Both the position numbers and the translations under genes were made by a program. From positions 431-64,430 of the forward strand of contig CASETE010000012.1 in the NCBI GenBank assembly GCA_949290785.1: a DNA stretch of 64,000 bases, written 5' to 3'. Of this stretch, positions 6,469-55,122 are shown one piece after another (the stretch's first letter is position 1; every line of letters begins with the position of its first letter). The notes under the pieces were generated by a model. The model searched no databases. It was not told the origin of the DNA and saw only the letters and a list, made by a program, of their open reading frames with translations. The stretch is from an uncultured Pseudomonadota bacterium (GTDB taxonomy: Bacteria > Pseudomonadota > Alphaproteobacteria > Rs-D84).

Positions 6469-7581
6469 TTATTCTTCGCCTGTATATTTCGTTATAAACT
6501 CTTTCTTAAACTCTGCAAATCTGCCCTGCTCTATGGCCACACGAATGTCGCGCATTAAATCTTGATAAAACCACAAGTTATGTTGCGTCAACAAAGTCGC
6601 CCCCAATATTTCGTTACACTTTATCAAGTGATGAATATACGCGCGCGACAACCGACATGCCGGACAACCACACTTGTCATCTAAGGGCGTTGGGTCGTCA
6701 CGAAACTTTGCGTTTTTCATATTCATGGTACCATGACGTGTAAATGCTTGCGCCGTTCTGCCCGCACGCGTTGGCATAACGCAATCAAACATATCTATGC
6801 CACGTTCTACCGCGCCGATTATATCAAGTGGCGTTCCCACCCCCATTAAATATCTTGGTTTATCTTCCGGTAACAACGGAGTTGTTGTTGCAATCATATC
6901 AAACATAACGTCTTGTGGCTCGCCAACTGCCAAGCCGCCAACGGCATAGCCGTCAAACCCAATTTCAGTCAGCGCCGTTGCAGACTTTATACGCAAATCT
7001 TTAAAATCAGCCCCTTGGACTATACCGAATATTCCATATCCTGGGCGGTCAACGAAAGCATCTTTACTACGGCGCGCCCAACGAGTCACCATATCCACGT
7101 TCTTTTCTACGCGTTCGCGCGGTGCCGGTAAATGCAAACATTCATCCAGAACCATCGTTATATTAGAATCTAACTGATGTTGAATACGCACTGAATCTTC
7201 CGGACGTAAAAAATGCTTTATTCCACCGTCTATATGCGAAGTAAACTCTACGCCCTCTTCTTTCATTTTTACCAAGTTAGACAGCGACATAACTTGGAAA
7301 CCACCACTGTCAGTTAATATAGGACCTGTCCAACCACTAAACTTATGAAGTCCGCCCATTTTTTCAACTAAATCGCCACCAGGGCGCATCATCAGATGAT
7401 AAGTGTTTCCCAAGATGACTTCGGTACCAGTTGCACGCACTTGGTCCATAGTAAGTGCCTTGACCGTTGCAGCCGTTCCAACCGCCATAAACGCAGGCGT
7501 TTGAAAGGTCCCATGCGCCGTTTCTACTTCACCGCGGCGCGCCATACCGTCTTTTGCAATTAAATTAAACTTTAACGACAT
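6469..7581 (-). CDS. tgt: Queuine tRNA-ribosyltransferase
   Basis: Motifs GTFQTPAFMAVGT, LGNTYHL, TDSGGFQV and DECLH are present, with zinc site CGCPAC...H. Confidence 0.95.
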   Translation of the reverse strand: MSLKFNLIAKDGMARRGEVETAHGTFQTPAFMAVGTAATVKALTMDQVRATGTEVILGNTYHLMMRPGGDLVEKMGGLHKFSGWTGPILTDSGGFQVMSLSNLVKMKEEGVEFTSHIDGGIKHFLRPEDSVRIQHQLDSNITMVLDECLHLPAPRERVEKNVDMVTRWARRSKDAFVDRPGYGIFGIVQGADFKDLRIKSATALTEIGFDGYAVGGLAVGEPQDVMFDMIATTTPLLPEDKPRYLMGVGTPLDIIGAVERGIDMFDCVMPTRAGRTAQAFTRHGTMNMKNAKFRDDPTPLDDKCGCPACRLSRAYIHHLIKCNEILGATLLTQHNLWFYQDLMRDIRVAIEQGRFAEFKKEFITKYTGEE

Positions 7582-15417: not shown

Positions 15418-15789
15418 ATGAAAAAACTATCCGACGCAGACATTAACGATATGGCAAACACCGTCTTTAAACCTGATACAAATGTTGTCAAACAGGTAAG
15501 ATCTGAATTACGCCTATCAACAAGAATTCCACAAACAAAAACCGCACAATATACAGAACGCGCCGTTTTAGATTTACATCAATATACCCAAGAACAAGCA
15601 TGGGACGCCATTAATAACCTAATCCACAGCGGTATACGTAATGCAACGATAATCACTGGGGCCAGCGGAATTTTAAAAATAAAGTTTCAACAATGGGTCA
15701 AAGACAGCATTATATCTGCGTATTTCATATCTGTAACCCCCATTAACAATGGCAGTTTTTGTGTAAGACTAAAAAAGCCCGCTGATTAA
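15418..15789 (+). CDS. Smr domain protein
   Basis: LDLHQYTQEQAWDAINNLI...ATIITGASG matches the Smr pattern LDLHG..xxEA...IIHGKG. Confidence 0.7.
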   Translation: MKKLSDADINDMANTVFKPDTNVVKQVRSELRLSTRIPQTKTAQYTERAVLDLHQYTQEQAWDAINNLIHSGIRNATIITGASGILKIKFQQWVKDSIISAYFISVTPINNGSFCVRLKKPAD

Positions 15790-16616
15790 TTCCGTCCCAA
15801 CCATTTCATAGGATCAATATATTTATCATTATACTTAATAGAATAATGTAAATGTGCCCCATCTGCCATACCCGTCTTGCCGGTTTTTGCAATTTCACAA
15901 CCCGCAAATACCGTTTCACCCTGTTTAACCAATTGCTGACTTAAATGACAATAAATAGTTTTATATCCACTTGGGTGACGAATTCTTATACCATTGCCAC
16001 AATATTTGTCACTCCACACAGCCTCTACCACCCCATCCGCAGGCGTAAACACAGATGTTCCGGCAGGCACCCCAAAATCTATACCATAATGTTTTTTATA
16101 TTCCCCAGTTATTGGATGTTCTCTATAACCATAGGGAGATGTGATACGAGGTTTGCCTTTTAAAGGCTCACCCACGGGTTCCCTTTGACCGGCTGGTATA
16201 TCCGTTTTTACAGGGAAACATCTTGGTGTATAATTAACAACTACGTTAGGTTGCGTTGTTGCGGATTGTTGCGCTTGGACGTCTTCGGTTTGTTTGACAA
16301 AGCCACCGTCTTCACCGGTCTGATAACCTAAATCATACATATGCTGGCTGGCATCTTCTGTATTTTGCTCTGACCGTTGTATATCCTCTGCCAGCGTAAT
16401 CCCATAATATGCACATCCTGATATACAGCGTCCGCTGGCATCATACGTGGATTCTAGGACTTCAAAACCATCTGACAATAACTCAACACGTTGAACAAAC
16501 GTTAAATCCGCCGCAGTCTTTGGAAAAGATTGCGCTTGCAACAAACTGGAGCCATCTGCATAGCGCGCATAACATACAGATATCAATGCTAATAATATAC
16601 CGCTTGGATACTTCAT
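15786..16616 (-). CDS. M23 family metallopeptidase
   Basis: HYGIDFGVPAGTSVFTPADGVV...GAHLHYSI carries the HxxxD and HxH LytM motifs. A signal peptide is present. Confidence 0.85.
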   Translation of the reverse strand: MKYPSGILLALISVCYARYADGSSLLQAQSFPKTAADLTFVQRVELLSDGFEVLESTYDASGRCISGCAYYGITLAEDIQRSEQNTEDASQHMYDLGYQTGEDGGFVKQTEDVQAQQSATTQPNVVVNYTPRCFPVKTDIPAGQREPVGEPLKGKPRITSPYGYREHPITGEYKKHYGIDFGVPAGTSVFTPADGVVEAVWSDKYCGNGIRIRHPSGYKTIYCHLSQQLVKQGETVFAGCEIAKTGKTGMADGAHLHYSIKYNDKYIDPMKWLGRN

Positions 16617-16648: not shown

Positions 16649-17797
16649 TTAAAAAATTATCTTCAGATTTAATTTTCCCGTATGCGCAATATATTCAGAA
16701 CGCAAGTCCAAATTATATGATATACCAGCAGAAAATGACGTTGCATATACGTTTATCCCCAGTCCTCCGTTAAATGCAGCCCGATGCGGAATTTCTATGG
16801 GAATGTCATAAACACTGTAATCAATTAACTGAACCGATATATTATCCGTACCGTTGCTGATAAAATCGTAACTGCCACCCATGTGCATGTCCGGACGAAT
16901 AATAAAATCACTGCCCTTGAAATCAAAGCCGACTTTAACGCCTGCGAACCCAGTTAAAAAGTTATACCACCAATCGTCAAATTCTTGGGACGCATTATCA
17001 ACATATTTATCTGAATATGTATATAAATATTTAACGCCAACTTGCGGAATTAAAGAAATGCGCCCACGATACATTAAAAAGCCGGTATTTACCTGCCCTG
17101 CAACAAAATCCGTGTCATAAGCACTGTTATCGGGCATCCCAGCAATTGTCTTGTCCATATTCCAACTGGTATGACCGCCGTTTAATCCGACGTTAACAAA
17201 GAAACCACTGTCCGCGACATATTCTGTAAACATTGTAATGCTGTTACTGGTGGCATCTGCATAGACCTTTGTATCTTGCGTATCTGTCATGCTGCGCGTA
17301 TAAGACACCCCCAGCTGCCAACCGTTTGATATAAAACCTTTGGCGCTGATATAAAAACCGGTATTTCGCGTATCAAAAGAACCGTTATTATCCGAGTCAA
17401 ATTCTGCAAAAGACCCAAAAACCTGACCGTCAATGCTTATCGTCTGATTTTGCACGTTGCAATTCATCAAATTCTTGACGCACTGATTTCTACGCGCCAT
17501 TATTGGCGAGTCTATAACAGAAAACGCCTGTGACACATGGTGGTTGATTTCAAACAAACCTATTGCACTGGTATTAAAGGCCAAAATAGAAACCGCATCC
17601 GATAACGCCAACGTGTTCGTGGTCTGTACATCACGAATATACGCGGCGATTTCACCGCCAACGCCAAGGTTTGCCAGCAAATTCTGCCACGCAGACGCCG
17701 CCTCTACTAAATAATCCGCCGGATATAAATTCTGTGCTTTTACTGCGCTTGGACAAACGCATAAACCTGTACAAAATATATATAAAATATTTTTCAT
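16649..17797 (-). CDS. Autotransporter beta-domain outer membrane protein
   Basis: Signal peptide ending VKA/QN. The C-terminal ~270 aa show alternating beta-strand pattern ending ...KLNLKIIF (terminal aromatic). Confidence 0.7.
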   Translation of the reverse strand: MKNILYIFCTGLCVCPSAVKAQNLYPADYLVEAASAWQNLLANLGVGGEIAAYIRDVQTTNTLALSDAVSILAFNTSAIGLFEINHHVSQAFSVIDSPIMARRNQCVKNLMNCNVQNQTISIDGQVFGSFAEFDSDNNGSFDTRNTGFYISAKGFISNGWQLGVSYTRSMTDTQDTKVYADATSNSITMFTEYVADSGFFVNVGLNGGHTSWNMDKTIAGMPDNSAYDTDFVAGQVNTGFLMYRGRISLIPQVGVKYLYTYSDKYVDNASQEFDDWWYNFLTGFAGVKVGFDFKGSDFIIRPDMHMGGSYDFISNGTDNISVQLIDYSVYDIPIEIPHRAAFNGGLGINVYATSFSAGISYNLDLRSEYIAHTGKLNLKIIF

Positions 17798-19455: not shown

Positions 19456-19532
19456 GCGCCCATGGCTCAATTGGATAGAGCATCTGACTACGGATCAGAA
19501 GGTTGAGGGTTCGAATCCTTCTGGGCGCGCCA
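19456..19532 (+). tRNA. tRNA-Arg (ACG)
   Basis: Cloverleaf with acceptor gcgccca/tgggcgc, D-stem gctc/gagc, anticodon stem tctga/tcaga with loop ctACGga, T-arm gaggg-ttcgaat-ccttc, encoded CCA. Confidence 0.9.
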
Positions 19533-21062
19533 GGAATCAAAATCCCCCAAATTTTCATTAAAAATCGCGAAAATTGGCGACACTTTGGGGGTTCTAAATT
19601 TTTCTTGTTTATCGTATGAAAGTTTGTCTGGAAAACACAAAGTTAGAACCCCGCGTTTTTGATTCAAATCGCCAACCCGCCATATTTCCACCGGATGGAT
19701 TAAAAACTCGCACACTGTATCCAGCGCATAATCAAGTGGCATTTCGTTGGCATCCGTTGCTGTTATTTCGGATTCCAGACGCGTAATTTGCCCTGTAATG
19801 GTATTTATGCGTTCGCGACACATGTTTGCGATTTGTGGGTCATTTGAACTGTTCATCAGTAAATTAAACGCATTGTCCTTTTCTTTGTGCAGTTTGGCGA
19901 TTTCTGTTTGGCGTTGTTTTTGCTGTGCGGCGGTATCCGCGGTTATTTTATTGTATGTATCGGTAATTATTCCACGCGCCAGATTTACCAACGCTTTATC
20001 GGGTGTAATAGAACGCAGCAAACTTTCCATATCTGCGTGCAAATCATCGCGGCGTATTGATTTGCTGTGCATCGGACAATTTTTATTATAGCAGTGATAA
20101 TACATATAGCGTTTGCCACATTTACCGCGCGGTTTGTCTGCGGTCAATGGGCGACCACATGCGGCACATAATACCCAACGGCGCAATGGAAACGTCTCGT
20201 CATTCATATTGTGTTTGCGCCCACGCGTGGCCGATTTTTTACCATGCAGGCGGTCTTGTATCATTTGGAAAGTATCAATGCTGATTATTGGTTCTATGTG
20301 CCATTGCTGATATGGTATGCCCCATTGTGGGTATCCAAACCAACCGGTGTATTTTTCGTTTTTTAACATATTCTTTACAAAGTTGAGTGTCAACTGTATT
20401 GGACGCCCAAAAGAATCAATCAATATGGCACTGCGCATGCTTTCCATAACAGCCTTTTGTGTTGCCAGCCGTCCATATGCAAATCCCTCTAATGCCTCTT
20501 GTATAAATGTGGCGGTTGGGTCAAGCCGCACCCAATGAACCCGACCTTGGGTGCGGACTTTTTTATACCCCACGGGTGCATTTAATACCCAATACCCCTG
20601 TTTGGCATGTTCCATCATATTTGTTTTTGTGCGGTCTTTATTTTTTTGACGTTCATATTGGGCAACCGCAGCAGACACATATTCTATCAATTCGCTTTCT
20701 GCCGTTTCATCCATTTGCATGGTGACACTTTGAACAAGGTGGCCATGCTTCTTCATTTCTTGTCTAAATGTCGCATATAGGGCTGCATTTCGCGCAAAAC
20801 GGTTTATATCGTATGCCAACACAATATAAGGTGTTTTGACATGCCTTAAAAAGTTTAACATTTCATTAAACACGGGGCGATTTGCATCACTGCCAGACAT
20901 TCCGGGTTCTATATAAACAGTTTCAACAGGATATCCCTTGGTGCGCGCCCATGCCCGACATTGTTGTTCTTGGCTGTCCAGTCCGTTGCCTTCGGTGACT
21001 TGTTTTCGACTGGATACACGGCAATATATAATTACTTTTGGTGTAAATGCTTTTGTTTCCAT
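19488..21062 (-). CDS. Large serine recombinase (resolvase catalytic domain + recombinase domain + zinc ribbon + coiled coil)
   Basis: N-terminus VIIYCRVSSRKQ...YDINRFARN carries the catalytic Ser. The centre has C-x2-C...C-x4-C (LCAACGRPL...YYHCYNKNCP) and the C-terminus is coiled coil. The last 15 codons (WRAQKDSNPQPSDP) are encoded by the antisense of the tRNA-Arg 3' end. Confidence 0.9.
   Translation of the reverse strand: METKAFTPKVIIYCRVSSRKQVTEGNGLDSQEQQCRAWARTKGYPVETVYIEPGMSGSDANRPVFNEMLNFLRHVKTPYIVLAYDINRFARNAALYATFRQEMKKHGHLVQSVTMQMDETAESELIEYVSAAVAQYERQKNKDRTKTNMMEHAKQGYWVLNAPVGYKKVRTQGRVHWVRLDPTATFIQEALEGFAYGRLATQKAVMESMRSAILIDSFGRPIQLTLNFVKNMLKNEKYTGWFGYPQWGIPYQQWHIEPIISIDTFQMIQDRLHGKKSATRGRKHNMNDETFPLRRWVLCAACGRPLTADKPRGKCGKRYMYYHCYNKNCPMHSKSIRRDDLHADMESLLRSITPDKALVNLARGIITDTYNKITADTAAQQKQRQTEIAKLHKEKDNAFNLLMNSSNDPQIANMCRERINTITGQITRLESEITATDANEMPLDYALDTVCEFLIHPVEIWRVGDLNQKRGVLTLCFPDKLSYDKQEKFRTPKVSPIFAIFNENLGDFDSWRAQKDSNPQPSDP
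19513..19532 (+). repeat. attL core (3' 20 nt of tRNA-Arg)
   Basis: Identical to 25362-25381. Confidence 0.8.
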
Positions 21063-21473
21063 TGTTTTTGAGCCTCCAATACCAATGTATGAATTATCGG
21101 ATTCAGCGCTGAATAAATCTGCCTTATTTGGTCGTCATTGAACCGTTCGTGCCCAGCCCCCATTTGTTTCCTGCACCATTCAACACTTCTTTCATACATC
21201 GGCATCTTTACTCGTTTATCTATACTAATCCAGTCTTTTCTGCACTTATGCCTGTTATATATTCAGTATGTGTGCGGATTTTGAAATTCGCAACAAAAAA
21301 TCCGCAAAAAATTTGCGTAATATCAATATATTTTTCTTGATTTTTGAAAATCCAGCATAACAGCGCTGTTCATAAAATTGCTTGCACGGGATTTTTGTCC
21401 GTGATAAAGTAATTTTGACATGGCGGTTGCCGTGTTGGGCGTCAGAACCCATTTATACTCGGTGTCCGTGGGG

Positions 21474-21506
21474 ACAAAAAAAGCCTCCAATCATCATGGT
21501 TGGAGG
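21474..21506 (-). terminator. Hairpin + U-run on minus strand (also element 1 of a plus-strand leader structure)
   Basis: cctccaa-N9-ttggagg is preceded on the plus strand by an A7 run, so it reads as a T-run after the hairpin on the minus strand. Confidence 0.5.
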
Positions 21507-21563
21507 GCGGCGAATATATTGAATAAGCCCGCTATTTTCCGAGTATTATAGTTCTGAACCTCC

Positions 21564-21591
21564 AACCACCCGCTTTGTCAGGTGGTTTTTT
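21564..21591 (+). terminator. Leader terminator upstream of the island lipoprotein operon
   Basis: aaccacc-cgctttgtca-ggtggtt followed by tttt, ending 28 nt before ATG 21619. Confidence 0.5.
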
Positions 21592-21618
21592 GTTTGAACA
21601 AACAAGGGAGTTAAAACA

Positions 21619-22215
21619 ATGAAAAAAATATTTTTAATGCTGGCTATGTTAGCAGGATTGGGTGCATGTGCGTCTGGTATGCATGACGAAGTAATCGCAC
21701 GCAGCGATGAATTATCATCACGCCCATCGTGGGTCAAGGATGATGACCCCATAGAAGTAAAAAATGGCGATATGTTTGTGACCAGTATGGCAACTGTGCG
21801 CAGCGACCGTGCCAATATTGCCCAAGGATACAGAATAGCCGAAAATCAGGCAAAAACAGACTTGTCCAATGCGATAAAAACAGAAATCAAAACAAATTTT
21901 GTTGATGCCCAAGAAGGTGTTGAAGGCGACCAATATCGCACAGAATTTTTATCCATTGAAAAAAGTGAAATCGCATTTTCTGGTTTAACGCCTGCAAATC
22001 GTTATTGGGAAAAAGTATTGGTGACAAATGCTGATGGGGATAAAGAAATGGAATATCGTTTTTATGTTCGCATGAAAATCAAAGAATCTGATTTCAAAAA
22101 ACAGATGAACGATTTCTTGAACGGGAACAAAGGTCTGTCCGCGGAATTTAATAAACGCGTGACGGATACTGTTAATGAATTTACTATGTCCCACACCACC
22201 AGCACGGCAGAATAA
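21619..22215 (+). CDS. Lipoprotein, LPP20/FlgP-like (tentative)
   Basis: Lipobox LAGLGACAS with RBS AAGGGAG. The mature part shows an alpha/beta pattern with A.......A.......L...I (RIAENQAKTDLSNAIKTEI), as in LPP20-type lipoproteins. The family call is by eye. Confidence 0.65.
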   Translation: MKKIFLMLAMLAGLGACASGMHDEVIARSDELSSRPSWVKDDDPIEVKNGDMFVTSMATVRSDRANIAQGYRIAENQAKTDLSNAIKTEIKTNFVDAQEGVEGDQYRTEFLSIEKSEIAFSGLTPANRYWEKVLVTNADGDKEMEYRFYVRMKIKESDFKKQMNDFLNGNKGLSAEFNKRVTDTVNEFTMSHTTSTAE

Positions 22216-22217
22216 TC

Positions 22218-23936
22218 ATGAAAAAGTTGTTGTATATCGTGTTGTGCATTGGCGGCATCAGTGCCGCCAGTGCGGGGGATTGTGATTGGGCCACGGTCAC
22301 CCCACCAGACGACGCAAAGTATAAATATTTTGTGGCCAAATCGTATTCTGAAACCAGCGCAAGCGATGCCGCCAACAAGGCGGAACAAGATATAGACGCA
22401 CAAATTGGGCGTCTGTTTGGTACAAAACTGGATGTTCAATCAGAGTTTTATTCGGATGAAATCGGTGCGTCTGGCACCACCCGTTCGTATGAACGCGCCA
22501 TCGGTATGATAACATTAAAGGGGCTGGAACGGCAGCGCAGCGATGTTGAAGAAACAACAGATGGTTGGACAGGTTGCGTTCAATACAGATACTTAAAATC
22601 AGAAATAAATGCTGAAAAACAACGTCTGCAAAGTATGTCATCCGATGAATTGCAGGCATCTTTAAGATTTACAGAAGTTGTCGGCGATACACAATGCCGT
22701 GGAACGCCCGTAGAAATTGTGACTGTGCCTGCTGGGGCATATGTGACCATAGACAATGGCAGGTATCAGGGCTCGGCACCAATAAAATTTGGCAATGTAT
22801 GCAACGGCAAATATACATTGGAAATCACAAAAGAAAACTATGAACCCATAACGGAACAATTAATCGTGCCAACATCTGGCCGAATAACCAAAACATTAAA
22901 ACGCGGCACCAAGACAATCACGGTGCGTACCAGTTTGGGCGATTCAAATATCGCGGTTAATGGTGTTGATTATGGTAAAGAGCCAATTAAATTTAACGCG
23001 CCATTGGGCATAGAGCAAAGCATAACCGCCACCAATGCCGAGGCAGCACAAGTCACCCAAACGCGTACATTTTCATATGAATCAGATGATGAATACACGA
23101 TATCTATGTCTAAATTGCCGGGGAGGATAGATTTTTCTGCTTTTAAGGTTCGTAATCCTGGTGTTGAAATCAAGGTGGACGGCAATACCTTGACAGGTAA
23201 TGTTAGCAAGGAGTTGTCATCTACCGAGACGCATAAGGTTAGTTTCTCGAAAAGTGGTTTTTATAACATAACCGACAACATAGAAGTTACAGGTGGAGAA
23301 ACAATATATTATCCCAGTCAAACATTACAATTTTCAAAACACCCTGATGCAACAAGCGGTTTGTTTGGTGGTCTGGGGGTAAGTGCAGGCAGCGGTACAT
23401 TTGGGTACAATTTTGAGCTTGGTATAGACTATAAAACAAAGTATTTTTACACCGGTGTCGGTGCCCAAATAAATTATATGAAGTTGTCAAAAGCAACAAT
23501 GACATATGATTATTTCTTTTCTCATACCGCGGATATAGATATGTCTTATTGGGAGATACTATATCTTAATTTGGGCTTTAATGTTGGACGAAAATTATCA
23601 ATTTTTGGCATTGGTTCTCTTGGGCTATTAAGTATAAACGCGTTGAACAGTGCGACATCAGCCAGTTTGAATGTAAATGATAAATTAAAACCAATGTTCA
23701 GATATGGTCTGGGGTTGCAATATTCTATTCCATTGGGGCAAAGTGGTGAATGGGGGATACGATTGTCTTATTTGACGGGTAAAACACATTTGTCGCCATC
23801 AGATATTACTTTTAGCCATATGAATAACTATGACAACAGTACAATTGATGTAGACAATCAAGTATTTGATAGTTATCCCGAACAAATAAGCAGTTTCAAC
23901 ATCACATTTTTCTTGCGTGGTTTTACTGCATTATGA
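22218..23936 (+). CDS. Secreted PEGA-domain protein with C-terminal outer-membrane beta-barrel
   Basis: Signal peptide, then an N-terminal module resembling the upstream lipoprotein (ASDAANKAEQDIDAQIGRLFG). PEGA-like repeats follow (VEIVTVPAGAYVTIDNGRYQGSAPIKF...YTLEITKENYEP; ITVRTSLGDSNIAVNGVDYGKEPIKF). The last ~200 aa have alternating beta-strands. The start codon is 3 nt after the upstream stop. Confidence 0.7.
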   Translation: MKKLLYIVLCIGGISAASAGDCDWATVTPPDDAKYKYFVAKSYSETSASDAANKAEQDIDAQIGRLFGTKLDVQSEFYSDEIGASGTTRSYERAIGMITLKGLERQRSDVEETTDGWTGCVQYRYLKSEINAEKQRLQSMSSDELQASLRFTEVVGDTQCRGTPVEIVTVPAGAYVTIDNGRYQGSAPIKFGNVCNGKYTLEITKENYEPITEQLIVPTSGRITKTLKRGTKTITVRTSLGDSNIAVNGVDYGKEPIKFNAPLGIEQSITATNAEAAQVTQTRTFSYESDDEYTISMSKLPGRIDFSAFKVRNPGVEIKVDGNTLTGNVSKELSSTETHKVSFSKSGFYNITDNIEVTGGETIYYPSQTLQFSKHPDATSGLFGGLGVSAGSGTFGYNFELGIDYKTKYFYTGVGAQINYMKLSKATMTYDYFFSHTADIDMSYWEILYLNLGFNVGRKLSIFGIGSLGLLSINALNSATSASLNVNDKLKPMFRYGLGLQYSIPLGQSGEWGIRLSYLTGKTHLSPSDITFSHMNNYDNSTIDVDNQVFDSYPEQISSFNITFFLRGFTAL

Positions 23937-23993
23937 GACAAACATGCCAATCATTAACAATGGTACAAAAGACCCTATAAAACATAATAACAC

Positions 23994-24215
23994 ATGGAGA
24001 AAACAACAATGAAAACACCAGAATACACAGAACAGAAATCATTGGCAGATATGCTCGGTAAGACTAATATCTTACTGACTGCGATCGTTATATTGTTGGC
24101 GGTTGGTCTGATTGGTGATGTGTTGACATATTTCAACATCATAACACTGCCAGATCACATATACCATGGTTTTAATGCCATTTATGACCGAATGGGACGG
24201 ATGCGCGTGTATTAA
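23994..24215 (+). CDS. Small single-pass membrane protein (73 aa)
   Basis: TM segment ILLTAIVILLAVGLIGDVL. The C-terminal codons fall inside repeat copy 1. Confidence 0.45.
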   Translation: MEKTTMKTPEYTEQKSLADMLGKTNILLTAIVILLAVGLIGDVLTYFNIITLPDHIYHGFNAIYDRMGRMRVY

Positions 24216-24384
24216 ACACAATTGCCGACAGAATGCGACAAATAGCCGACAGCGCGTTTTTGCTGTTTTATGGTATGACGGTGGCATAAATTCGTTTTCG
24301 TTTGACGTCGGCCACGACAATGCGACTGTCGCTGTGTTATAAAATACACGCTGGGGTCATTTGTCACAGTGCCACATCATAACC
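24203..24384 (+). repeat. Island-internal repeat, copy 1 (with ~87-bp internal insertion)
   Basis: Segments 24203-24238 and 24326-24384 align to 24859-24953 (gcgcRtgtattaaacaYaaKtgccgacagaatgcga ... tgtcgctgtgttataaaataYRYgctggggtcatttgtcaca). Confidence 0.75.
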
Positions 24385-24476
24385 CGTGGCACTGATATTT
24401 AAAAAAAAGGAGATTTGATGGCAAAAAAACAAGAATAGTACTGGAAAGAAAAAGAAATGCATATGTTGGCAGGCTA

Positions 24477-24830
24477 GTGTCCTCGTCCGTTGTTATTGAT
24501 GATGCACTCAGTTTGAAACTTAAAAACGGCGAATCTAAAATAATTGAAGTGCCAAACGGTAAAACAGAGTTTGATATTCAAATATCAAATTCTTATAGTT
24601 TTCATATAAAAAACATACCGAGCGTGAAAAAAATTATATTACAGTATCGTCTTTTTGGCATTTCTTGTTCAGTAATATATCAAGATGGTCACGAATTTAA
24701 TGCTCCAAATAAAAATTCTGTGACATCTGTTAACAACACAATCATTTTAATAACCTCCTTGGTTATGCTGCTATTATTTTTACGTGGGCTGGGAAAGGCG
24801 ATAGCGGACATGATTTGGTTGTTTGGATGA
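24477..24830 (+). CDS. Hypothetical protein with C-terminal TM; 5' end probably disrupted by a frameshift in an A7 tract
   Basis: The ORF frame is open from 24396. The only good RBS+ATG (AAGGAG-N6-ATG at 24418) is in another frame and joins it if the A7 run 24423-24429 gains one A. Confidence 0.5.
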   Translation: MSSSVVIDDALSLKLKNGESKIIEVPNGKTEFDIQISNSYSFHIKNIPSVKKIILQYRLFGISCSVIYQDGHEFNAPNKNSVTSVNNTIILITSLVMLLLFLRGLGKAIADMIWLFG

Positions 24831-24858
24831 GCCAAGAACAATAACCCAATTCCGTGGG

Positions 24859-24953
24859 GCGCATGTATTAAACATAAGTGCCGACAGAATGCGATTGTCG
24901 CTGTGTTATAAAATATGTGCTGGGGTCATTTGTCACAATCCCACACCATAACC
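24859..24953 (+). repeat. Island-internal repeat, copy 2
   Basis: See copy 1. It is followed by C7 (24966-24972) and C6 (24978-24983) homopolymers. Confidence 0.75.
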
Positions 24954-25222
24954 ACATACCACATCCCCCCCACCATCCCCCCTAACATGTGTATCGCATC
25001 TGAATAACATCTGTGTGGATAAGCATGCTTTTATTATGGCAATGGTGTGAGTTCTAATCTTTCGTGGCGATTAAAGCAAACAAAACTGCGTGTCAAATAT
25101 CTGATTTAACGATTGCTTGGATGCACGCCAATATGTTTGATTTGCATATATATTGCGCACTGCGGCGTAATTCCGTGAACAAAGGGTTCGGACTTTGGAT
25201 ACCAATGGCGCGCCAGAAATTT

Positions 25223-25244
25223 AAACCGGCTGTATGCCGGTTTT
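25223..25244. terminator. Orphan hairpin terminator in the non-coding right arm of the island
   Basis: aaaccggc-tgtat-gccggtttt. Confidence 0.5.
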
Positions 25245-25361
25245 AATTTTGTTGCAAGCCCAAGGATTTGAACCCGACACAGAGGGTGCGACAATGAGTA
25301 GTTAAGCCAAGCTTTTGCGCAGGCGAAACGTTACGAATGCCCCGCAGGACACAGGCCGAGG

Positions 25362-25381
25362 GAATCCTTCTGGGCGCGCCA
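25362..25381 (+). repeat. attR core (orphan copy of tRNA-Arg 3' end)
   Basis: Exact 20/20 match to 19513-19532. The upstream gaggg also matches the tRNA T-stem, but the ttc of the T-loop is missing, so this is not a functional tRNA. Confidence 0.8.
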
Positions 25382-25403
25382 AAATAAATTTTATATTTCT
25401 TTA

Positions 25404-25432
25404 TAAAAAATAAAACCGCCGTAAAGGCGGTT
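25404..25432 (-). terminator. Terminator of cassette 1
   Basis: Minus strand reads aaccgcc-tttac-ggcggtt followed by a T-run, directly after the B1 stop. Confidence 0.75.
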
Positions 25433-25435
25433 GGT

Positions 25436-25747
25436 TTAACTTACGTTTGTACAAGGCGGCTCAAATTTATAAGTACCCGTTGAATCTGAACTGCCTGTCG
25501 AATAAAATATACAAAATGGATCATAATATGAAGATGGTACACATAAACCTTCTATACATTCTGGCACGTCTGCTATTGATTCAAACAAATTTATTTTTGT
25601 GGTGCCGGTTGGGCATGTACTACCACTTACAAGTCTGATTCCAACAACAGATTCCAATGTTGTTAATCCACAAGGACAACTTAAAGCAAATGCTTGCGAA
25701 AATGGAATTAATATGACGAATGCAAATATGACTATTATTTTTTTCAT
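25436..25747 (-). CDS. Secreted Cys-rich protein, family B (B1; cassette 1, position 3)
   Basis: Signal peptide MKKIIVIFAFVILIPFSQAFA. Motifs STCPTGTT, FCIFYS and DSTGTYKFEPPC are shared with B2 and B3. Confidence 0.8.
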   Translation of the reverse strand: MKKIIVIFAFVILIPFSQAFALSCPCGLTTLESVVGIRLVSGSTCPTGTTKINLFESIADVPECIEGLCVPSSYYDPFCIFYSTGSSDSTGTYKFEPPCTNVS

Positions 25748-25762
25748 TTTATTTATCCATTA

Positions 25763-26170
25763 TTATCGTTTTAATGTTTTTAATATGTTGTTTTTAAAAG
25801 TGGAATTGTTGTAAAACAACTGGGCACAACGTTGTGCACATGCGGCCTCGCACCAATCAAACTGCCCCCAAGATGTTGAGGTCATACGAACAAAATCGGA
25901 TATTGCCGGATATATCATTTTACACCAACAATAATAAGATGAACTGGATACCGTTGGGTTGGATGCCACCCTTGTAGAAGAACTGGAACATACACCAACA
26001 CCACGAATTGTTATTCCACTGCATGTAATCGTCCAATCTGGTTGATAGGTCGCAACATTCGGCGAAGTACACGATGTTGCGGATGTCATTTCCAGACACA
26101 TTGACACCGCCCAACTGGGTACAGACCATATAAATAAAAACAACATAAATATTAATTTTATTCCTTTCAT
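25763..26170 (-). CDS. Secreted Cys-rich protein, family A subtype II (A1; cassette 1, position 2)
   Basis: Start is at the internal ATG 26170 (MKGIKLIFMLFLFIWSVPSWA) with RBS AGGTGAAAGA. Motifs IRGVGVCSSS, YYCWCKM and WCEAACAQRC. Closest paralog by eye is 29194-29667. Confidence 0.8.
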   Translation of the reverse strand: MKGIKLIFMLFLFIWSVPSWAVSMCLEMTSATSCTSPNVATYQPDWTITCSGITIRGVGVCSSSSTRVASNPTVSSSSYYCWCKMIYPAISDFVRMTSTSWGQFDWCEAACAQRCAQLFYNNSTFKNNILKTLKR

Positions 26171-26192
26171 TTCTTTCACCTGTACGAATTGA

Positions 26193-26615
26193 TTAAAATA
26201 CATAATATTCTGTAGCACACCTTTGTGGACATTTCGCAGCACAAGTCTTATTATCGCCATAACTTTGTAGATATTCCCAATCTGTTATTTCTGGTCTGAT
26301 TGTCTTGCACCAACAATGCAGCGTATTTGGTGAATTGCCTAATTTTACCTGACTTGCCGACGTAAAGCACATGCCAAAGCCAAAAACCTGCATTCGTGGT
26401 CCCAGATACGTAGCATTATTGCTGTCATAATATTGAATTTCTTTTGTCCATATGTAATTACTTCCGCTGTACGACATAACCTTGAAAGAAGCACCAACTA
26501 TAGACACCCTTTGTGAAAAATTATTTAAACACATTTTTATGGTTGTTGCGGAAAATGCGGGTGTTAATGCCGCCATACATATCGCGCTGAACAAAAACAA
26601 TCTTGTTAATTTCAT
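26193..26615 (-). CDS. Secreted Cys-rich protein, family A subtype I (A2; cassette 1, position 1)
   Basis: Start is at ATG 26615 (MKLTRLFLFSAICMAALTPAFS). Motifs KMCLNNF, FGFGMCFTS, HCWCKT and TCAAKCPQRC. Confidence 0.8.
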   Translation of the reverse strand: MKLTRLFLFSAICMAALTPAFSATTIKMCLNNFSQRVSIVGASFKVMSYSGSNYIWTKEIQYYDSNNATYLGPRMQVFGFGMCFTSASQVKLGNSPNTLHCWCKTIRPEITDWEYLQSYGDNKTCAAKCPQRCATEYYVF

Positions 26616-26663
26616 TGAAGTACTGACCCCCACATATATTAGAAACCTTTATATCGTAACCTT

Positions 26664-26693
26664 ATGATAAAAAAAACATACATTTAAAGTCAA
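26664..26693 (-). promoter_or_regulatory. Sigma70-like promoter of cassette 1 (TTGACT-18-TATCAT)
   Basis: Minus strand reads tcttgactttaaatgtatgttttttttatcat. It is homologous to the cassette 3 promoter region. Confidence 0.55.
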
Positions 26694-26743
26694 GACATAA
26701 AAACATTTTCCAAAACATAAATTTTTTTATATCATACTTCAAT

Positions 26744-27055
26744 ATGAAGACTTTAACCGCCAAAGATATTTTAGAATTACCCGGAACGCCATTCCAACGC
26801 GATGTATGGTGCGCCTTGGTTAAAATACCGTACGGCGAAACCCGAACGTATCGGCAAGTTGCCGCTATGTCTGGGCACCCCAACGCCGTACGCGCAGTCG
26901 CAAACGCAATCGCAAAAAATCCCCTGCCCCCGATTATACCTTGCCACAGGGTTATACGCAGCGACGGTGGCATCGGTGGATATTCTGCACCAGGTGGAAT
27001 AAAGCAAAAAGCACGCTTGTTACACCAAGAAAAAATAACAAGTATAAAAAATTAA
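26744..27055 (+). CDS. ogt: Methylated-DNA--protein-cysteine methyltransferase (C-terminal DNA-binding/active-site domain only, 103 aa)
   Basis: TPFQRDVWCALVKIPYGETRTYRQVA...NPLPPIIPCHRVIRSDG contains the PCHR active site. Confidence 0.85.
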   Translation: MKTLTAKDILELPGTPFQRDVWCALVKIPYGETRTYRQVAAMSGHPNAVRAVANAIAKNPLPPIIPCHRVIRSDGGIGGYSAPGGIKQKARLLHQEKITSIKN

Positions 27056-27078
27056 AACGTCATGATTAATTTTTACCG

Positions 27079-27108
27079 TTGACAACGTTGTTGAAATTAA
27101 ACTACAAT
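27079..27108 (+). promoter_or_regulatory. Sigma70-like promoter of cassette 2 (TTGACA-18-TACAAT)
   Basis: Consensus -35 at 27079-27084 and -10 at 27103-27108. RBS GGGGAGGAA precedes ATG 27198. Confidence 0.6.
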
Positions 27109-27197
27109 AATCATAACAAAATACCAAAAAGCGATTTGTTTGAATTATATTCCTTGCAAATCTGCATTTTTGTCTGAAAGGGGAGGAAACATATCAC

Positions 27198-27788
27198 ATG
27201 AAATCATTGACAACATTTGCATTTACGATATTTGCGTGCTTGATTCTGCAACCTGCCTTTTCAACCACAACTGGAACAATAACAATGTGCGTTCCTGATT
27301 ATAGTAGATGGTCAGGATGGCAAAATTATACCGGTATGGGCGGTGATACAAGTGGTTATAAATACCAATATAGTTGGAGCGCAACAGCACAAAGAAAATA
27401 CATTACAACAGGGCTCATTGAAAATATTAGCGCCAAGGGCGTTGGATACTGTTCAACAAAAAGTGGCAGTCCAGGTGGCACTGCAGAATCTTTGGATGAA
27501 CGAAATCGCCCATGTAACGACGCTTATTACTGTTGGTGCAAGATGACATCACCATTGGATTCCCAGTGGGTGTTCTTGAAAGATTACAACGATGAATTTA
27601 CCAGTTTATATACAGAGTCTAGCCAATCTGGCAACCCACAAGTGTGGGTAAATGCTGGTAAAGAAGTATCAGATCAATATCTAACCAGTTATACATTTTG
27701 TCAGAAATATTGCGCAAAGGAATGTGCGGATGATTTTAAGAAAGGGGGCTCTGTAATACGCGCACCGTTGTTTAATTCTGTTCAGTAA
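27198..27788 (+). CDS. Secreted Cys-rich protein, family A subtype I (A3; cassette 2, position 1)
   Basis: Signal peptide ...LILQPAFS. Motifs TMCVPDY, AKGVGYCSTK, YYCWCKM and FCQKYCAKEC. This is the largest member (196 aa). Confidence 0.8.
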   Translation: MKSLTTFAFTIFACLILQPAFSTTTGTITMCVPDYSRWSGWQNYTGMGGDTSGYKYQYSWSATAQRKYITTGLIENISAKGVGYCSTKSGSPGGTAESLDERNRPCNDAYYCWCKMTSPLDSQWVFLKDYNDEFTSLYTESSQSGNPQVWVNAGKEVSDQYLTSYTFCQKYCAKECADDFKKGGSVIRAPLFNSVQ

Positions 27789-27813
27789 AACAAAAATAGT
27801 ACAGGAATATAAA

Positions 27814-28302
27814 ATGAAAATATTACATTTATCGATTACAGTGTTTGCATCTATGCTTTTGATATATGAATCATACGCAACAACATTTGCTTCATCATCA
27901 GAGGCGAAAATTTGTTTGACAGATTTTAGTAATGCAACAGCATGTGACAATGCAATTTATGGCGAAGCACAAATAGATAGACAAAACCAATGGTCGTTCA
28001 CTTGCCAATTAGGTGGTAGTTCATTGGATTTTAAGGGCTTGGCATTTTGCGCTTCGGAAGAAGCAAGTCCGGGAACCGTAGCAGATACAATTTCCAGCGG
28101 ACCTTATGATAATTTGCCTGAAAACTGCTGGTGCAAAATGACATATCCATTTGCATCGAAATGGGTTTACGCAGGACAAGCAGGAGGCGGTAGATATTAC
28201 TGTTTCAACATTTGTGCTTCTTATTGCAAATCCGCACTTTCACAAAATGATAGTTATAACCCAATGCGTACATTAATGTTAACAAATCCGGAAAATCAAT
28301 AA
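27814..28302 (+). CDS. Secreted Cys-rich protein, family A subtype II (A4; cassette 2, position 2)
   Basis: Signal peptide present. Motifs KICLTDF, FKGLAFCASE, NCWCKM and YCFNICASYC. Confidence 0.8.
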   Translation: MKILHLSITVFASMLLIYESYATTFASSSEAKICLTDFSNATACDNAIYGEAQIDRQNQWSFTCQLGGSSLDFKGLAFCASEEASPGTVADTISSGPYDNLPENCWCKMTYPFASKWVYAGQAGGGRYYCFNICASYCKSALSQNDSYNPMRTLMLTNPENQ

Positions 28303-28320
28303 ATAATATAGGATATAAAA

Positions 28321-28671
28321 ATGAAAAAATATATCTGTTATACAATATTTATGTTCGTCGGTATCTTGTCGGCAAATGCAGACCCGTTTATTCCGCCTGC
28401 ATCCTGCCCCGCCGGAATGCGTCAAATTACAAGACCCTATATCCTTGCAGATACAAGTTGCGGCACCGGTCAAATAGAGGCAAATATTGCTGCTACGTCT
28501 TGCTATAATTTTTATACTAATGCAAGCAATACAACTGTTAATCCAGCCAGAACGCCATCTGTATGCTTTATGTATATTCCCACGAATTTAAAATTCAAGG
28601 ACGACAAGGGCTACTATATATTTAACAACGGTATTTGCACCGTTGATGGACCAGTACAACAACAACCATAA
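28321..28671 (+). CDS. Secreted Cys-rich protein, family B (B2; cassette 2, position 3)
   Basis: Signal peptide ...GILSANA. Motifs ASCPAGM, TSCGTGQ, VCFMYI and DDKGYYIFNNGIC. Confidence 0.75.
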   Translation: MKKYICYTIFMFVGILSANADPFIPPASCPAGMRQITRPYILADTSCGTGQIEANIAATSCYNFYTNASNTTVNPARTPSVCFMYIPTNLKFKDDKGYYIFNNGICTVDGPVQQQP

Positions 28672-28674
28672 AAA

Positions 28675-28697
28675 AGTGCGAATGTCGCACTTTTTTA
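28675..28697 (+). terminator. Terminator of cassette 2
   Basis: agtgcg-aatgt-cgcact followed by ttttt. Confidence 0.75.
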
Positions 28698-28721
28698 TCA
28701 TGACAGTTAATATTTTTCGTC

Positions 28722-28751
28722 TTGACTTGAATTACTGTTTTTATTTATCAT
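28722..28751 (+). promoter_or_regulatory. Sigma70-like promoter of cassette 3 (TTGACT-18-TATCAT)
   Basis: tcttgacttgaattactgtttttatttatcat has the same architecture and flanks as the cassette 1 promoter. Confidence 0.55.
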
Positions 28752-28794
28752 TCAACATGAAATATAACCATTATATCGGGGGGCATTATATAAA

Positions 28795-29175
28795 ATGAAA
28801 TTAAAAACATTTTCTTGTTTCATGTTTTGCCTGATAATTAGCGCCCCCGCATTTGCAGAAATCACACGATGCATAAATCCGTTTTCCAATCGTGAAATGT
28901 ATACTAAAAATACAGATTCGTTGACAACGCCGAGACGATATATGTGGAGTCAAATTGTACAGCACGGCTCATGGACAACCAATATACAAGGTATCAGCAT
29001 TTGTTCTACATCAAGTACAACTGTAGAGGTTCCAATAAACGCAACACCAGCAAAATATTGTTGGTGCAGAAAAATAACACCACGGGTAGGCAACTGGACA
29101 TATTCAACAACTAGTTTTGACGACACAGCAAGTTGTTTCAGCGGTTGTGCCGAGGCATGCCGTGAGTCTATGTAA
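28795..29175 (+). CDS. Secreted Cys-rich protein, family A subtype I (A5; cassette 3, position 1)
   Basis: Signal peptide ...IISAPAFA. Motifs TRCINPF, IQGISICSTS, YCWCRK and SCFSGCAEAC. Confidence 0.8.
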   Translation: MKLKTFSCFMFCLIISAPAFAEITRCINPFSNREMYTKNTDSLTTPRRYMWSQIVQHGSWTTNIQGISICSTSSTTVEVPINATPAKYCWCRKITPRVGNWTYSTTSFDDTASCFSGCAEACRESM

Positions 29176-29193
29176 AAATACAGGAATACAGTT

Positions 29194-29667
29194 ATGAAAA
29201 TGTCAAAATTTATGTTCATACTATTTATGGTCGGCGCATATACTGACCCGGCGTCCGCGGTTTCTGTATGCGCAAGGGTGACAACCGACACAAACACCAC
29301 ATGCACCAGTCATACACCAACCGGTACAACTTCTACAACACCTGATTGGACTGTAACATGTACAAACACAACCAATAGCACAACAGATACAATAACAGTA
29401 AAAGGTATCGGCATATGTTCTAATCAAACAACCTTGTTTAATGAAACTATTACTTATCCTACTGTACAAACACCCGATGAAACGCCTATAACGTCTTATT
29501 GTTGGTGTAAAATGTTATCACCGGCCATATCAAAATTTGTACGTATCACGAATAATGCATGGGACCAATATGACTACTGCTATCCACGTTGCGCCAAAGT
29601 ATGCGCAGAAACGTTTCAGAACGATACCAGCTTTCGCGCAAGTATATTGAATAATTTATCACTATAA
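29194..29667 (+). CDS. Secreted Cys-rich protein, family A subtype II (A6; cassette 3, position 2)
   Basis: Signal peptide ...DPASA. Motifs VSVCARV, VKGIGICSNQ, SYCWCKM and YCYPRCAKVC. The Thr-rich N-terminal region is near-colinear with 25763-26170. Confidence 0.8.
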   Translation: MKMSKFMFILFMVGAYTDPASAVSVCARVTTDTNTTCTSHTPTGTTSTTPDWTVTCTNTTNSTTDTITVKGIGICSNQTTLFNETITYPTVQTPDETPITSYCWCKMLSPAISKFVRITNNAWDQYDYCYPRCAKVCAETFQNDTSFRASILNNLSL

Positions 29668-29680
29668 TAAAAGGCACAAT

Positions 29681-29998
29681 ATGAAGAAAATTTTTTTCTT
29701 GTTACTGATTTTACCAACCAGCGCCCTTGGGATTGGACCGCAAAGTTGTACCGAGGCAACTGGCACACTCAATTTTGACCAAGTAACAGAGCCGGGGTTA
29801 ATCGTAACAAATGGCAGTTGTCCAACCGGAACAACAACAGTACTTGAAACAACGGATAATATCAACTGCCCGTCTGCTGTAAGTTCTCTATTATTTACAC
29901 AAACATTTTGCATCTTGTACGAACCGGCAAATACGAATATCACAGATTCTACTGGGACCTATGAATACGTAAATGAAGTGTGCCCGTTTGCTGAATAA
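29681..29998 (+). CDS. Secreted Cys-rich protein, family B (B3; cassette 3, position 3)
   Basis: Signal peptide ...PTSALG. Motifs GSCPTGTT, FCILYE and DSTGTYEYVNEVC. Confidence 0.8.
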   Translation: MKKIFFLLLILPTSALGIGPQSCTEATGTLNFDQVTEPGLIVTNGSCPTGTTTVLETTDNINCPSAVSSLLFTQTFCILYEPANTNITDSTGTYEYVNEVCPFAE

Positions 29999-30022
29999 AT
30001 CCACGTGCATTACAAAAAATTA

Positions 30023-30047
30023 AGAGGCGATGTAAACGCCTCTTTTG
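30023..30047. terminator. Bidirectional terminator (cassette 3 / M23 peptidase)
   Basis: agaggcg-atgtaa-cgcctct with flanking A and T runs. Confidence 0.75.
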
Positions 30048-30066
30048 TTATTCCCACAAAACAGTG

Positions 30067-53556: not shown

Positions 53557-55122
53557 TTAGAACAATTTGAATTTATAATTTGTTCCAGCTCTGAAACTTA
53601 CATTAGAATCAGACAAACCTGCCGCAGCATTAACAGACCATCTGTCCGTCAAGCCCAACGCAGCCCCAAAAGCAACCGCCGATTGAGAGTTATAATAACC
53701 ATACCCCCCACCAACAGATAATTCGCCCTTGTCAACGTCAGAGACCGCAACCGCCGACATAGCAGCCGTACTGGCAATACCAGCTGATAGTTCTTTTTCC
53801 AACGTATTTACGCGGTTATCCGTATAAGCATTTGCTGCCCTTAACGTCAATTCACTTTGGGCATCTGTATACGCTTTCGCCGCCCCCAAGGTCAGTTCGT
53901 CACCAGCAATACGGTCTGCTGTTTCTTGAGCAATTGCCGCCGTATTTGTTGCGATTTTACCGTCCAACACTGCTTCTGCTGCTATCGCGCGCTCTGTTTC
54001 TGCGGTTATCGCATCGGTATTTGCGGTTATCGCATCGGTATTTGCGGTAATTCTGTCACCCAAGGCTTCTTCCGCAGCTGTCGCCCGGTCTGTTTCAGTT
54101 GCAATCGCATCAGATATCGCCCCTCCTTCTGCCAAAGAGTCATTTATTGCAGAATTAGCACCGTTTTCAATTGTTTCTAAAATTGGCGCATCATATGTGC
54201 CCTTGGCAGCATTATACAAGGCTTCTTCCGCTGCTTGTTGATTTGCCGCATTCTGCTGATTTGCCTGCGCCTGTGCCAACAAGTCCTCTGCTTCGCCGAC
54301 GGTTGCAAAATTATCGTTCAGATCTTGAATTATATCGCTGTCAGCATTAAATATATCTTGCGCAGCACCAAAGTTTGTCTGTTCCGTTACCCAGTTTGCA
54401 GCGGTCGTTGATACGTTTGATTCAAAAATCGCTTTGTCAGAATCATATTCGGCTTTCAAGTTTGTGAATAAAGTTTCCAATTCGGACCCGGCATCTGGCG
54501 TTTGAACTGCCCCGTCCATATTTAACAACTGTGAACCATCAGGTGACAATTTATATTGTGTACCCGTACTTAAAGCGGCCGTATACATACCACCGTCCAA
54601 ACTGGTAACATCTTCGCCATTAATTTGTGCGCTGCCGTTCGTTGTTGTAACAACTATACCGCCGGCAGATGCAGACAAAGTCTGTTCTGTTACCATATTT
54701 TGTGCTGTTTCACCTAATGTAACAGTGTCGCCGTTACCATTCTTGTAAGAATAGTTGTTTCTGTCAATTGTTGCCCCAGCAACGATTTCTTGGGTTGTGG
54801 TTACATCGCCTGTTGCCGTGGACGTACCGGTAAAATCACTTTGTTCTGGTATACCAGTAGAAAAATCTGCCGTACCGCCGTCTTTATCGGTATAGGTAAA
54901 TTTTGTCATATCAGGATTCGTTCCATATGCAACGTCAGAAACGGTGGAACCGTCAGACGCCTCATACGAATATGTTGTATCAGCCAAAGGATCAGATACG
55001 TTAGCAATGGTTTCACCATCTTCTTTTGTATAATTACCTGCAAAAGTAACATCCGTTGCAGCGTTTGCCGCGCAAGAAATACTTATTGCAAATAACGATG
55101 TTAAAAAAACATGTTTTTTCAT
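53557..55122 (-). CDS. Trimeric autotransporter adhesin (YadA-like C-terminal anchor)
   Basis: Signal peptide ...SCAANA, coiled-coil stalk repeats (ITANTDAITANTDAITAETERAIAAE, neck-like AYTD) and C-terminal anchor GIASTAAMSAV...GYYNSQSAVAFGAA...FRAGTNYKF. Confidence 0.88.
   Translation of the reverse strand: MKKHVFLTSLFAISISCAANAATDVTFAGNYTKEDGETIANVSDPLADTTYSYEASDGSTVSDVAYGTNPDMTKFTYTDKDGGTADFSTGIPEQSDFTGTSTATGDVTTTQEIVAGATIDRNNYSYKNGNGDTVTLGETAQNMVTEQTLSASAGGIVVTTTNGSAQINGEDVTSLDGGMYTAALSTGTQYKLSPDGSQLLNMDGAVQTPDAGSELETLFTNLKAEYDSDKAIFESNVSTTAANWVTEQTNFGAAQDIFNADSDIIQDLNDNFATVGEAEDLLAQAQANQQNAANQQAAEEALYNAAKGTYDAPILETIENGANSAINDSLAEGGAISDAIATETDRATAAEEALGDRITANTDAITANTDAITAETERAIAAEAVLDGKIATNTAAIAQETADRIAGDELTLGAAKAYTDAQSELTLRAANAYTDNRVNTLEKELSAGIASTAAMSAVAVSDVDKGELSVGGGYGYYNSQSAVAFGAALGLTDRWSVNAAAGLSDSNVSFRAGTNYKFKLF
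54001..54048. repeat. 21-bp tandem repeat inside the adhesin gene (2.3 copies)
   Basis: tgcggttatcgcatcggtatt occurs twice, followed by a partial third copy. It encodes the ITANTDA heptads. Confidence 0.85.

Follow-up and report, generated by a model that had tools for sequence, protein, structure and literature searches.

We have analyzed six paralogous genes (A1 to A6) for small, exported, cysteine-rich proteins in a 64,000-nucleotide stretch of contig CASETE010000012.1 (assembly GCA_949290785.1), which comes from an uncultured alphaproteobacterium of the Rs-D84 lineage and is referred to here as the window. Together with a second family of small exported proteins, B, whose genes lie directly downstream of A genes, the A proteins make up a two-protein system that is so far undescribed and specific to a lineage of gut Alphaproteobacteria with reduced genomes (order Rs-D84 / Ca. 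Enterousia). The A proteins keep a fixed core of conserved Cys, Trp, Gly and Pro residues, and change is concentrated in their loops and on one face of a C-terminal helix. A literature search found no published description of the A/B family. The genomes of Rs-D84 are smaller than 1 Mb and lack most biosynthetic pathways, and a published proposal makes the lineage an obligate symbiont or parasite, in contact with other cells through unidentified membrane proteins (PMC12306168). The explanation towards which we lean is that the A-A-B operons encode an A-B complex that would act as a variable extracellular or surface binding module, built on a disulfide scaffold, for attachment or evasion.

The genes are arranged in three A-A-B units. 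Operon 1, on the minus strand, consists of A2 (26193..26633), A1 (25763..26170) and B1 (25436..25747). Operon 2, on the plus strand, consists of A3 (27198..27788), A4 (27814..28302) and B2 (28321..28671), and operon 3, also on the plus strand, of A5 (28795..29175), A6 (29194..29667) and B3 (29681..29998). The six A open reading frames (ORFs) stand at the coordinates given in an original prediction, made from the letters of this DNA alone, and all of the motif strings quoted there are found in their translations; the B ORFs fell outside the span that it covered. A hidden Markov model (HMM) of A was built from 128 database sequences, with the clade of the window left out, and searched against all 217 ORFs of the window that reach 60 aa or more. 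Exactly the six A ORFs were matched, with expected value (E-value) scores between 8.5e-28 and 6.4e-10 (A1, 3.3e-26; A2, 6.4e-10; A3, 5.3e-20; A4, 4.8e-23; A5, 1.1e-15; A6, 8.5e-28), and none of the other ORFs searched was matched at E<=10. Because this independent model picks out exactly these six ORFs, the A motif pattern is real and not due to chance. The three B genes, which encode small, secreted, cysteine-rich partner proteins, were matched by a B HMM; B1 has 7 Cys in its mature part.

In a MAFFT alignment of the six A proteins the cysteines occupy the same columns, and the positional equivalence assumed in the original prediction is thus borne out. The invariant positions, in A1 numbering, are C25, W46, G57, C61, C81-W82-C83, P88, C107, C111 and C115. 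Seven Cys columns and the Trp and Gly columns stay invariant when 19 database homologues are added to the six proteins, and the Cys, Trp and Gly columns are invariant or nearly so in an alignment of 91 sequences. Two extra cysteines (TxC ... WxxTC) are present in A1, A4 and A6, which are of the 9-Cys type, and missing from A2, A3 and A5, of which A2 and A5 are of the 7-Cys type. A3 has an insertion of ~40 aa in the hypervariable loop preceding the Cys helix, and the sequence of this insertion differs in the orthologue P0002. The Thr-rich stretches that had been noted in A1 and A6 are clear in A6; A1, however, holds more Ser than Thr.

All six A proteins begin with a Sec-type N-terminus, as read from the sequence: an n-region with Lys, then a hydrophobic core, then a small-x-small site. 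There is no RR in the six n-regions (MKGIK, MKLTR, MKSLT, MKILH, MKLKT, MKMSK) that would place them in the Tat class, and a bacterial lipobox ([LVI][ASTVI][GAS]C) is found neither in the six window proteins nor in the main family. The first Cys is placed 3-7 residues past the cleavage site and is preceded by M, M, M, I, R or V in the window proteins, and by K in those of the main family (VTKC). The longest ORF of A1, with its start at 26260, would overlap A2, and the likely start of A1 is the ATG at 26170 (MKGIKLIF), which has a Shine-Dalgarno (SD)-like AGGTGA upstream. A2 probably starts at the ATG at 26615 (MKLTRLF), again with an SD-like motif upstream, as is the case for every A start.

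The A family is large. An exhaustive HMMER search returned 2104 representatives (50%-identity clusters) at E<=1e-3, 1027 of them at E<=1e-10, and a word-indexed profile search returned 637 A clusters at 90% identity. The members carry no source name beyond "hypothetical protein". When one genome per species was scanned, 68 loci were found. Almost all of them are in metagenome-assembled genomes (MAGs) of either Ca. Enterousia or uncultured Alphaproteobacteria of the gut, with chicken, human, deer, sheep and horse as hosts, and at least 8-11 A copies were present in single MAGs. The window shares 94-97% nucleotide identity with its closest strain, MAG L052, and 70-79% with other MAGs in housekeeping genes. 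No relative of A was found among the viral contigs of IMG/VR, and a phage origin of A was dropped on that account.

The original prediction had allowed that the motif might map to a known domain, for example a described bacteriocin or lipoprotein family, and no such match for A was found. Searches of Pfam-A, NCBIfam and PHROGs with the six A and three B proteins gave nothing better than E=0.15, and scans of the main-family proteins P0019, P0055, P0040, P0295, P0298 and P0287 against these libraries gave nothing meaningful. The sole PDB profile match, to geopilin (E=0.84), was rejected, as its alignment is confined to the signal peptide and one Ser/Thr-rich stretch and takes in none of the Cys motifs. 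For B, the Ephrin_rec_like and furin-like families (PF07699, PF15913 and related models) gave sub-threshold matches only: the B protein P0298 scored E=0.011 with cEGF, with zero matched stretches, and one B scored E=0.17 with Furin-like_2. The CPxGY motif of B is a resemblance only to Ephrin_rec_like/furin-like repeats.

The association of A with B is tight. Across the loci, all 65 of the 65 B ORFs have an A ORF before them on the same strand. The gene directly following A is B in 64 of 99 cases and another A in 14; the other A ORFs are mostly truncated by contig ends or belong to large multidomain proteins. Apart from B, no neighbour recurs beside the cassettes at more than 8 of the loci. A and B are also found naturally fused, in either order: as A-B in P0033 and as B-A in L045 (10347-10988) and L047 (2131-2850). 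Linkage and fusions therefore point to a functional, and probably physical, partnership of A and B. In the window the cassettes lie between a tRNA-Arg gene and an M23 peptidase gene (19533-30066), an interval that is a conserved syntenic site holding one to three cassettes, depending on the genome. Several relatives have a single A(-A)-B cassette at this site (compare L003, L021, L022, L037 and L051), whereas the window has three, which suggests local tandem expansion together with inversion.

A structural model of mature A6, predicted with AlphaFold2 from 91 sequences, had a mean predicted local distance difference test score (pLDDT) of 78.5 and a predicted template modelling score (pTM) of 0.75. 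The model places strands at residues 13-17, 29-38, 41-54 (ending in G-x-x-x-C53), 79-87 (with C81-W-C83) and 93-95, followed by helices at 104-121 (with C107, C111 and C115) and 123-131. We infer from this arrangement that three disulfides connect C53, C81 and C83 with C107, C111 and C115. The helix repeats the pattern C-A-x-x three times; its Cys and Ala positions are conserved, while the x-x positions are among the most variable of the protein, as would be expected if one face of the helix were held against the sheet. When the A6 model was compared with PDB and BFVD using Foldseek, there was no match; the best E-values were about 0.9-0.99, with template modelling (TM) scores of about 0.2. 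The top matches were lipocalin-like and were set aside as noise (E about 0.9, TM about 0.2).

Cysteine counts add to this picture. Among 236 standalone A proteins, the mature part holds 9 Cys in 204 and 7 in 17; mature B proteins have 5 in 86 of 92 cases, and 47 adjacent A+B pairs combine 9 with 5. The second and third Cys of A are lost jointly, as in A2, A3 and A5, so that they presumably pair with each other; this would make the invariant N-terminal Cys, 3-7 residues in, the odd one of A. The odd number of Cys in both A and B makes an inter-chain disulfide attractive, and the L045 fusion has 5+9=14 Cys in total. An enzyme that could oxidise these cysteines is present in the lineage: a DsbA-like, membrane-anchored oxidoreductase with a thioredoxin fold and an FSCP[YF]C motif (Pfam DSBA, 6.7e-19) is encoded in the related L015 (4226-5059, minus strand), L018 (8883-9716, plus strand) and L042 (17584-18417, minus strand). 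In the Enterousia loci L015 and L018 this gene lies ~1-1.5 kb from an A-B cassette. The original prediction had called for a check that the genome encodes DsbA/DsbB or another periplasmic oxidase; a DsbA-like gene is found in related genomes, but a motif scan and tblastn detected no DsbA in the 64-kb window. The putative disulfide scaffold that it proposed is supported by the predicted CWC strand and CxxxCxxxC helix, the conservation pattern of that helix, the Sec signals and the DsbA-like gene of the relatives.

The divergence between the cysteines had been read as diversifying selection. To quantify it, alignment columns were classed on 112 independent sequences and the ratio of nonsynonymous to synonymous substitution rates (dN/dS) was pooled by the method of Nei and Gojobori (NG86) over 105 A gene pairs. 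In these non-independent, recombining pairs the most variable third of the columns had a dN/dS of 1.7, or of 2.3 when only pairs with dS<0.3 are counted; the value was 0.53 in the middle third and 0.07 in the conserved one, which supports the earlier reading. The variable columns fall in the loops after the first Cys pair, before CWC and before the helix, and on the exposed helix face and the C-terminal flank. Over whole genes, dN/dS of A and B between the window and its closest strain is under 1 (0.15-0.47). In the same comparison dN of the A and B genes is 0.008-0.30, against mostly <=0.02 for the flanking housekeeping genes. The dS values of A4, B1 and A2 are raised to 0.4-1.3, which indicates allele replacement or gene conversion beyond point mutation alone; A4 shares 64% amino acid identity with its L052 orthologue, at a dS of 1.29. 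Within typical genomes the paralogues of A are about 46% identical and those of B 69-88%, and A is therefore the variable partner.

The A domain also recurs in large proteins, chiefly as its C-terminal two-thirds. It is found 4-7 times in giants of 2382-6218 aa that are rich in Listeria-Bacteroides (Flg_new) repeats, and tandem arrays are seen in P0148, P0151 and P0154. P0147, a public metagenome protein of 4750 aa, has five A domains, Flg_new repeats and a C-terminal Endonuclease_1 domain; it could be a surface-tethered nuclease in a lineage unable to make nucleotides. Elsewhere the A domain is C-terminal: in the 2711-aa giant of L066, with Flg_new and Ephrin_rec_like repeats, in L049, whose N-terminus matches the tail-fibre family phrog_892 (4.5e-5), and in L058, whose N-terminus matches phrog_17509, of unknown function (1.5e-10). 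Since A is embedded repeatedly in Flg_new giants, it behaves as an extracellular module. Its distribution marks it as a module for structure or binding outside the cell, and not as an enzyme or toxin.

These results can be assembled into a working scheme. Sec would export A and B, signal peptidase I would cleave them and a DsbA-like enzyme would then form their disulfides. A would fold as a small beta-sheet in which the CWC and G-x-x-x-C strands are stapled by three disulfides to the C-A-x-x-C-A-x-x-C helix. With the two semi-conserved cysteines joined to each other, the invariant Cys close to the start of the mature chain would have no partner within A; B, which has 5, would likewise keep one spare, and a probable A-B complex might be disulfide-linked. 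Such a complex could serve as a protease-resistant, variable binder outside the cell or at its surface, either for attachment to partner or host cells or for evasion of recognition by them. With A variable and B more constant, the many cassettes of a genome would supply a repertoire of binding or antigenic specificities. The picture of a diversified disulfide scaffold given by the original prediction thus stands, but it was incomplete, as it omitted the partner gene B, the three-gene operons, the A-B and B-A fusions and the A modules of giant proteins.

Several observations weigh against this scheme. The autotransporter barrel, YadA anchor, MurJ and class A penicillin-binding protein (PBP) encoded in the window indicate that the cell has an outer membrane; Sec alone ends in the periplasm of such a diderm cell, and no route that would take A or B across the outer membrane was found. 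The AlphaFold2 model of B3 is poor (pLDDT 40) and too weak for a structure search. The fusions P0033, with 11 Cys, and L047, with 13, have odd totals, so that the rule of one inter-chain disulfide is not clean. The dN/dS estimate is crude, since pairs that are not independent were pooled and recombination was ignored though evident. Finally, the window copies are far more divergent than typical members (22% identity for A, 26% for B), and conclusions drawn from the main family may transfer to them imperfectly.

A stronger version of the scheme, which we put forward tentatively as the less probable of the two, makes A and B a covalent heterodimer of unseen fold that would be the main variable cell-contact device of an order of gut Alphaproteobacteria obligately dependent on partners. 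It would be the bacterial counterpart of the variant-surface repertoires of parasites and set which host or partner cells a strain can attach to. Its diversity would come from tandem duplication and allele replacement, and from positive selection that acts on one face of a helix stapled three times. An unlikely alternative casts A as a secreted toxin or bacteriocin, with B as its cognate immunity protein in the periplasm and the cassettes as an arsenal for competition in the gut. A small exported Cys-rich A followed in a tight cassette by a smaller exported B would suit such a pair, as would the many divergent copies per genome, their rapid evolution with allele replacement and the Endonuclease_1 end of one A-domain giant. 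However, specific toxin and immunity pairs should co-vary, and within a genome B is 69-88% identical against 46% for A; in polymorphic toxin terms, it is the C-terminal half of A that is most conserved, B is more conserved and A occurs in internal tandem repeats. Arrays of 4-7 internal modules and fusions in either order are unlike a toxin tip, the residues that are invariant in A (C, W, G, P, K and M) include no H, D or E of the catalytic type, and no bacteriocin or toxin family was found in Pfam or NCBIfam.

We give a similarly low weight to the idea that A and B are subunits of an envelope fibre or coat, polymerised through their spare cysteines, with variation driven by phage or immune pressure and not by ligand binding. 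The odd Cys counts kept in both proteins, the high copy number, the tandem arrays of A and its presence in proteins with phage-fibre-like N-termini are in its favour; yet no usher, sortase-like or pilus genes recur beside the cassettes, a donor strand or pilin-like N-terminal helix is lacking, and the geopilin match (E=0.84) lies off the Cys motifs. It is more improbable still that A is a periplasmic metal or cofactor binder in which the CWC and CxxxCxxxC cysteines are ligands and not disulfides. Six clustered invariant core cysteines and an odd Cys total could be read in that way. Proteins loaded with a cofactor usually use Tat, however, whereas A has Sec signals with Lys and no twin arginine; there is a DsbA-like oxidase in the lineage and no conserved His, Asp or Glu in A, and a hypervariable surface (dN/dS>1) with many paralogues per tiny genome is atypical for a cofactor protein. 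That the A ORFs are not genes at all, their motifs arising from chance or from repeated non-coding DNA, has practically no probability left: it is refuted by the independent HMM, which finds only the six, and by the dN/dS of 0.07 in conserved columns, and hundreds of homologues share the invariant residues, with an SD-like motif before every window start.

The variable A-B binding module was also compared with known systems. A CxC strand together with a CxxxC helix is the classic means of stapling helix to sheet in the cysteine-stabilised alpha-beta (CSab) defensins and scorpion toxins. A resembles these in having both elements, the helix as modelled, and in being small, secreted and tolerant of variable loops; in A, however, the order is reversed, with the CWC strand before the helix, the helix has three Cys and the protein is ~120 aa long as against 35-50. 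With order reversed, size off and no match by sequence family or Foldseek, A does not belong to the CSab fold. Among the multigene families of variable Cys-rich surface proteins known from host-dependent microbes, the variant-specific surface proteins (VSPs) of Giardia, with their Ephrin_rec_like or furin-like CxxC repeats, offer a likeness: many paralogues in a partner-dependent organism of reduced genome, a Cys-rich exported scaffold and hypervariable Thr/Ser-rich surfaces, and the giant A relative of L066 also carries Ephrin_rec_like repeats. In contrast to VSPs, A and B match no VSP, furin-like or Ephrin_rec_like model, have no transmembrane anchor and form a two-gene cassette, and nothing points to expression of one copy at a time. 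The giant Flg_new surface proteins share the A domain itself, embedded 4-7 times, whereas the A proteins of the window are free-standing single domains with no Flg_new repeats. In the two-gene split pilin of Geobacter (geopilin domains 1 and 2), too, small exported proteins that might associate are encoded side by side, but its match to A misses the Cys motifs, and there is no homology. What is new here is the A domain, the fold suggested for it by the model and the obligatory A-B cassette; what is familiar is the expansion of variable Cys-rich exported families in host-dependent microbes.

A sigma-70-like site stands upstream of each A-A-B unit, and a hairpin follows the B gene of each; these are consensus matches only. 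The sites upstream of A2 (26664..26693, minus strand) and A5 (28722..28751, plus strand) both read TTGACT-18-TATCAT and lie in a 39-nt inverted repeat (I1) with each other; that upstream of A3 (27079..27108, plus strand) is TTGACA-18-TACAAT, with 11 of 12 consensus positions. Terminator-like hairpins lie directly downstream of B1 (25414..25432) and downstream of B3 (30022..30044), and where B2 ends a perfect 14-bp palindromic hairpin (I14; 28668..28698) separates operon 2 from operon 3. Between the divergent A operons is a short O6-methylguanine methyltransferase (MGMT)-type gene (26744-27055, plus strand), encoding a 103-aa protein with only the DNA-binding/active-site domain (Pfam DNA_binding_1, 9e-33); a gene of this type has the same position in L052.

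The cluster adjoins what looks like a small integrative element, an insertion of ~5.7 kb (19534-25216) that is absent from L052. A 10-bp direct repeat, GGCGCGCCAG, bounds the insertion, with one copy formed by the 3' end of tRNA-Arg (19456-19532) and the second at 25207-25216. The insertion carries a large serine recombinase (19488-21062, minus strand), a 198-aa ORF and a secreted 572-aa PEGA-domain protein. L052 has a second, partial tRNA-Arg 3' end with a downstream hairpin (7040-7330), ~190 bp past the intact tRNA, which may be the remnant attachment (att) site of a past integration. Elsewhere in the window, on the minus strand, are genes for surface proteins with an autotransporter beta-domain (16649-17797), a YadA anchor of trimeric autotransporter type (53557-55122) and BspA-type leucine-rich repeats (57889-59295), and this reduced genome invests heavily in surface or adhesion proteins. 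The flanking gene at 15786-16616 (minus strand) has a dN/dS of 0.65 against L052, which is unusually high beside other housekeeping genes.

With more than 2000 A clusters at 50% identity and neither a Pfam model nor a structural relative, the family is a target for curation and for structure determination. The design of A appears compact, with a rigid, disulfide-stapled core, as modelled, that tolerates a hypervariable helix face and loops. Rs-D84 and Enterousia are common in the guts of humans, livestock and poultry and are thought to live off other cells (PMC12306168). The A/B family takes up ~1-2% of their tiny gene set; this share, together with export, the estimated positive selection and the reuse of A in giant surface proteins, makes the family a strong candidate for the cell-contact interface of these bacteria.

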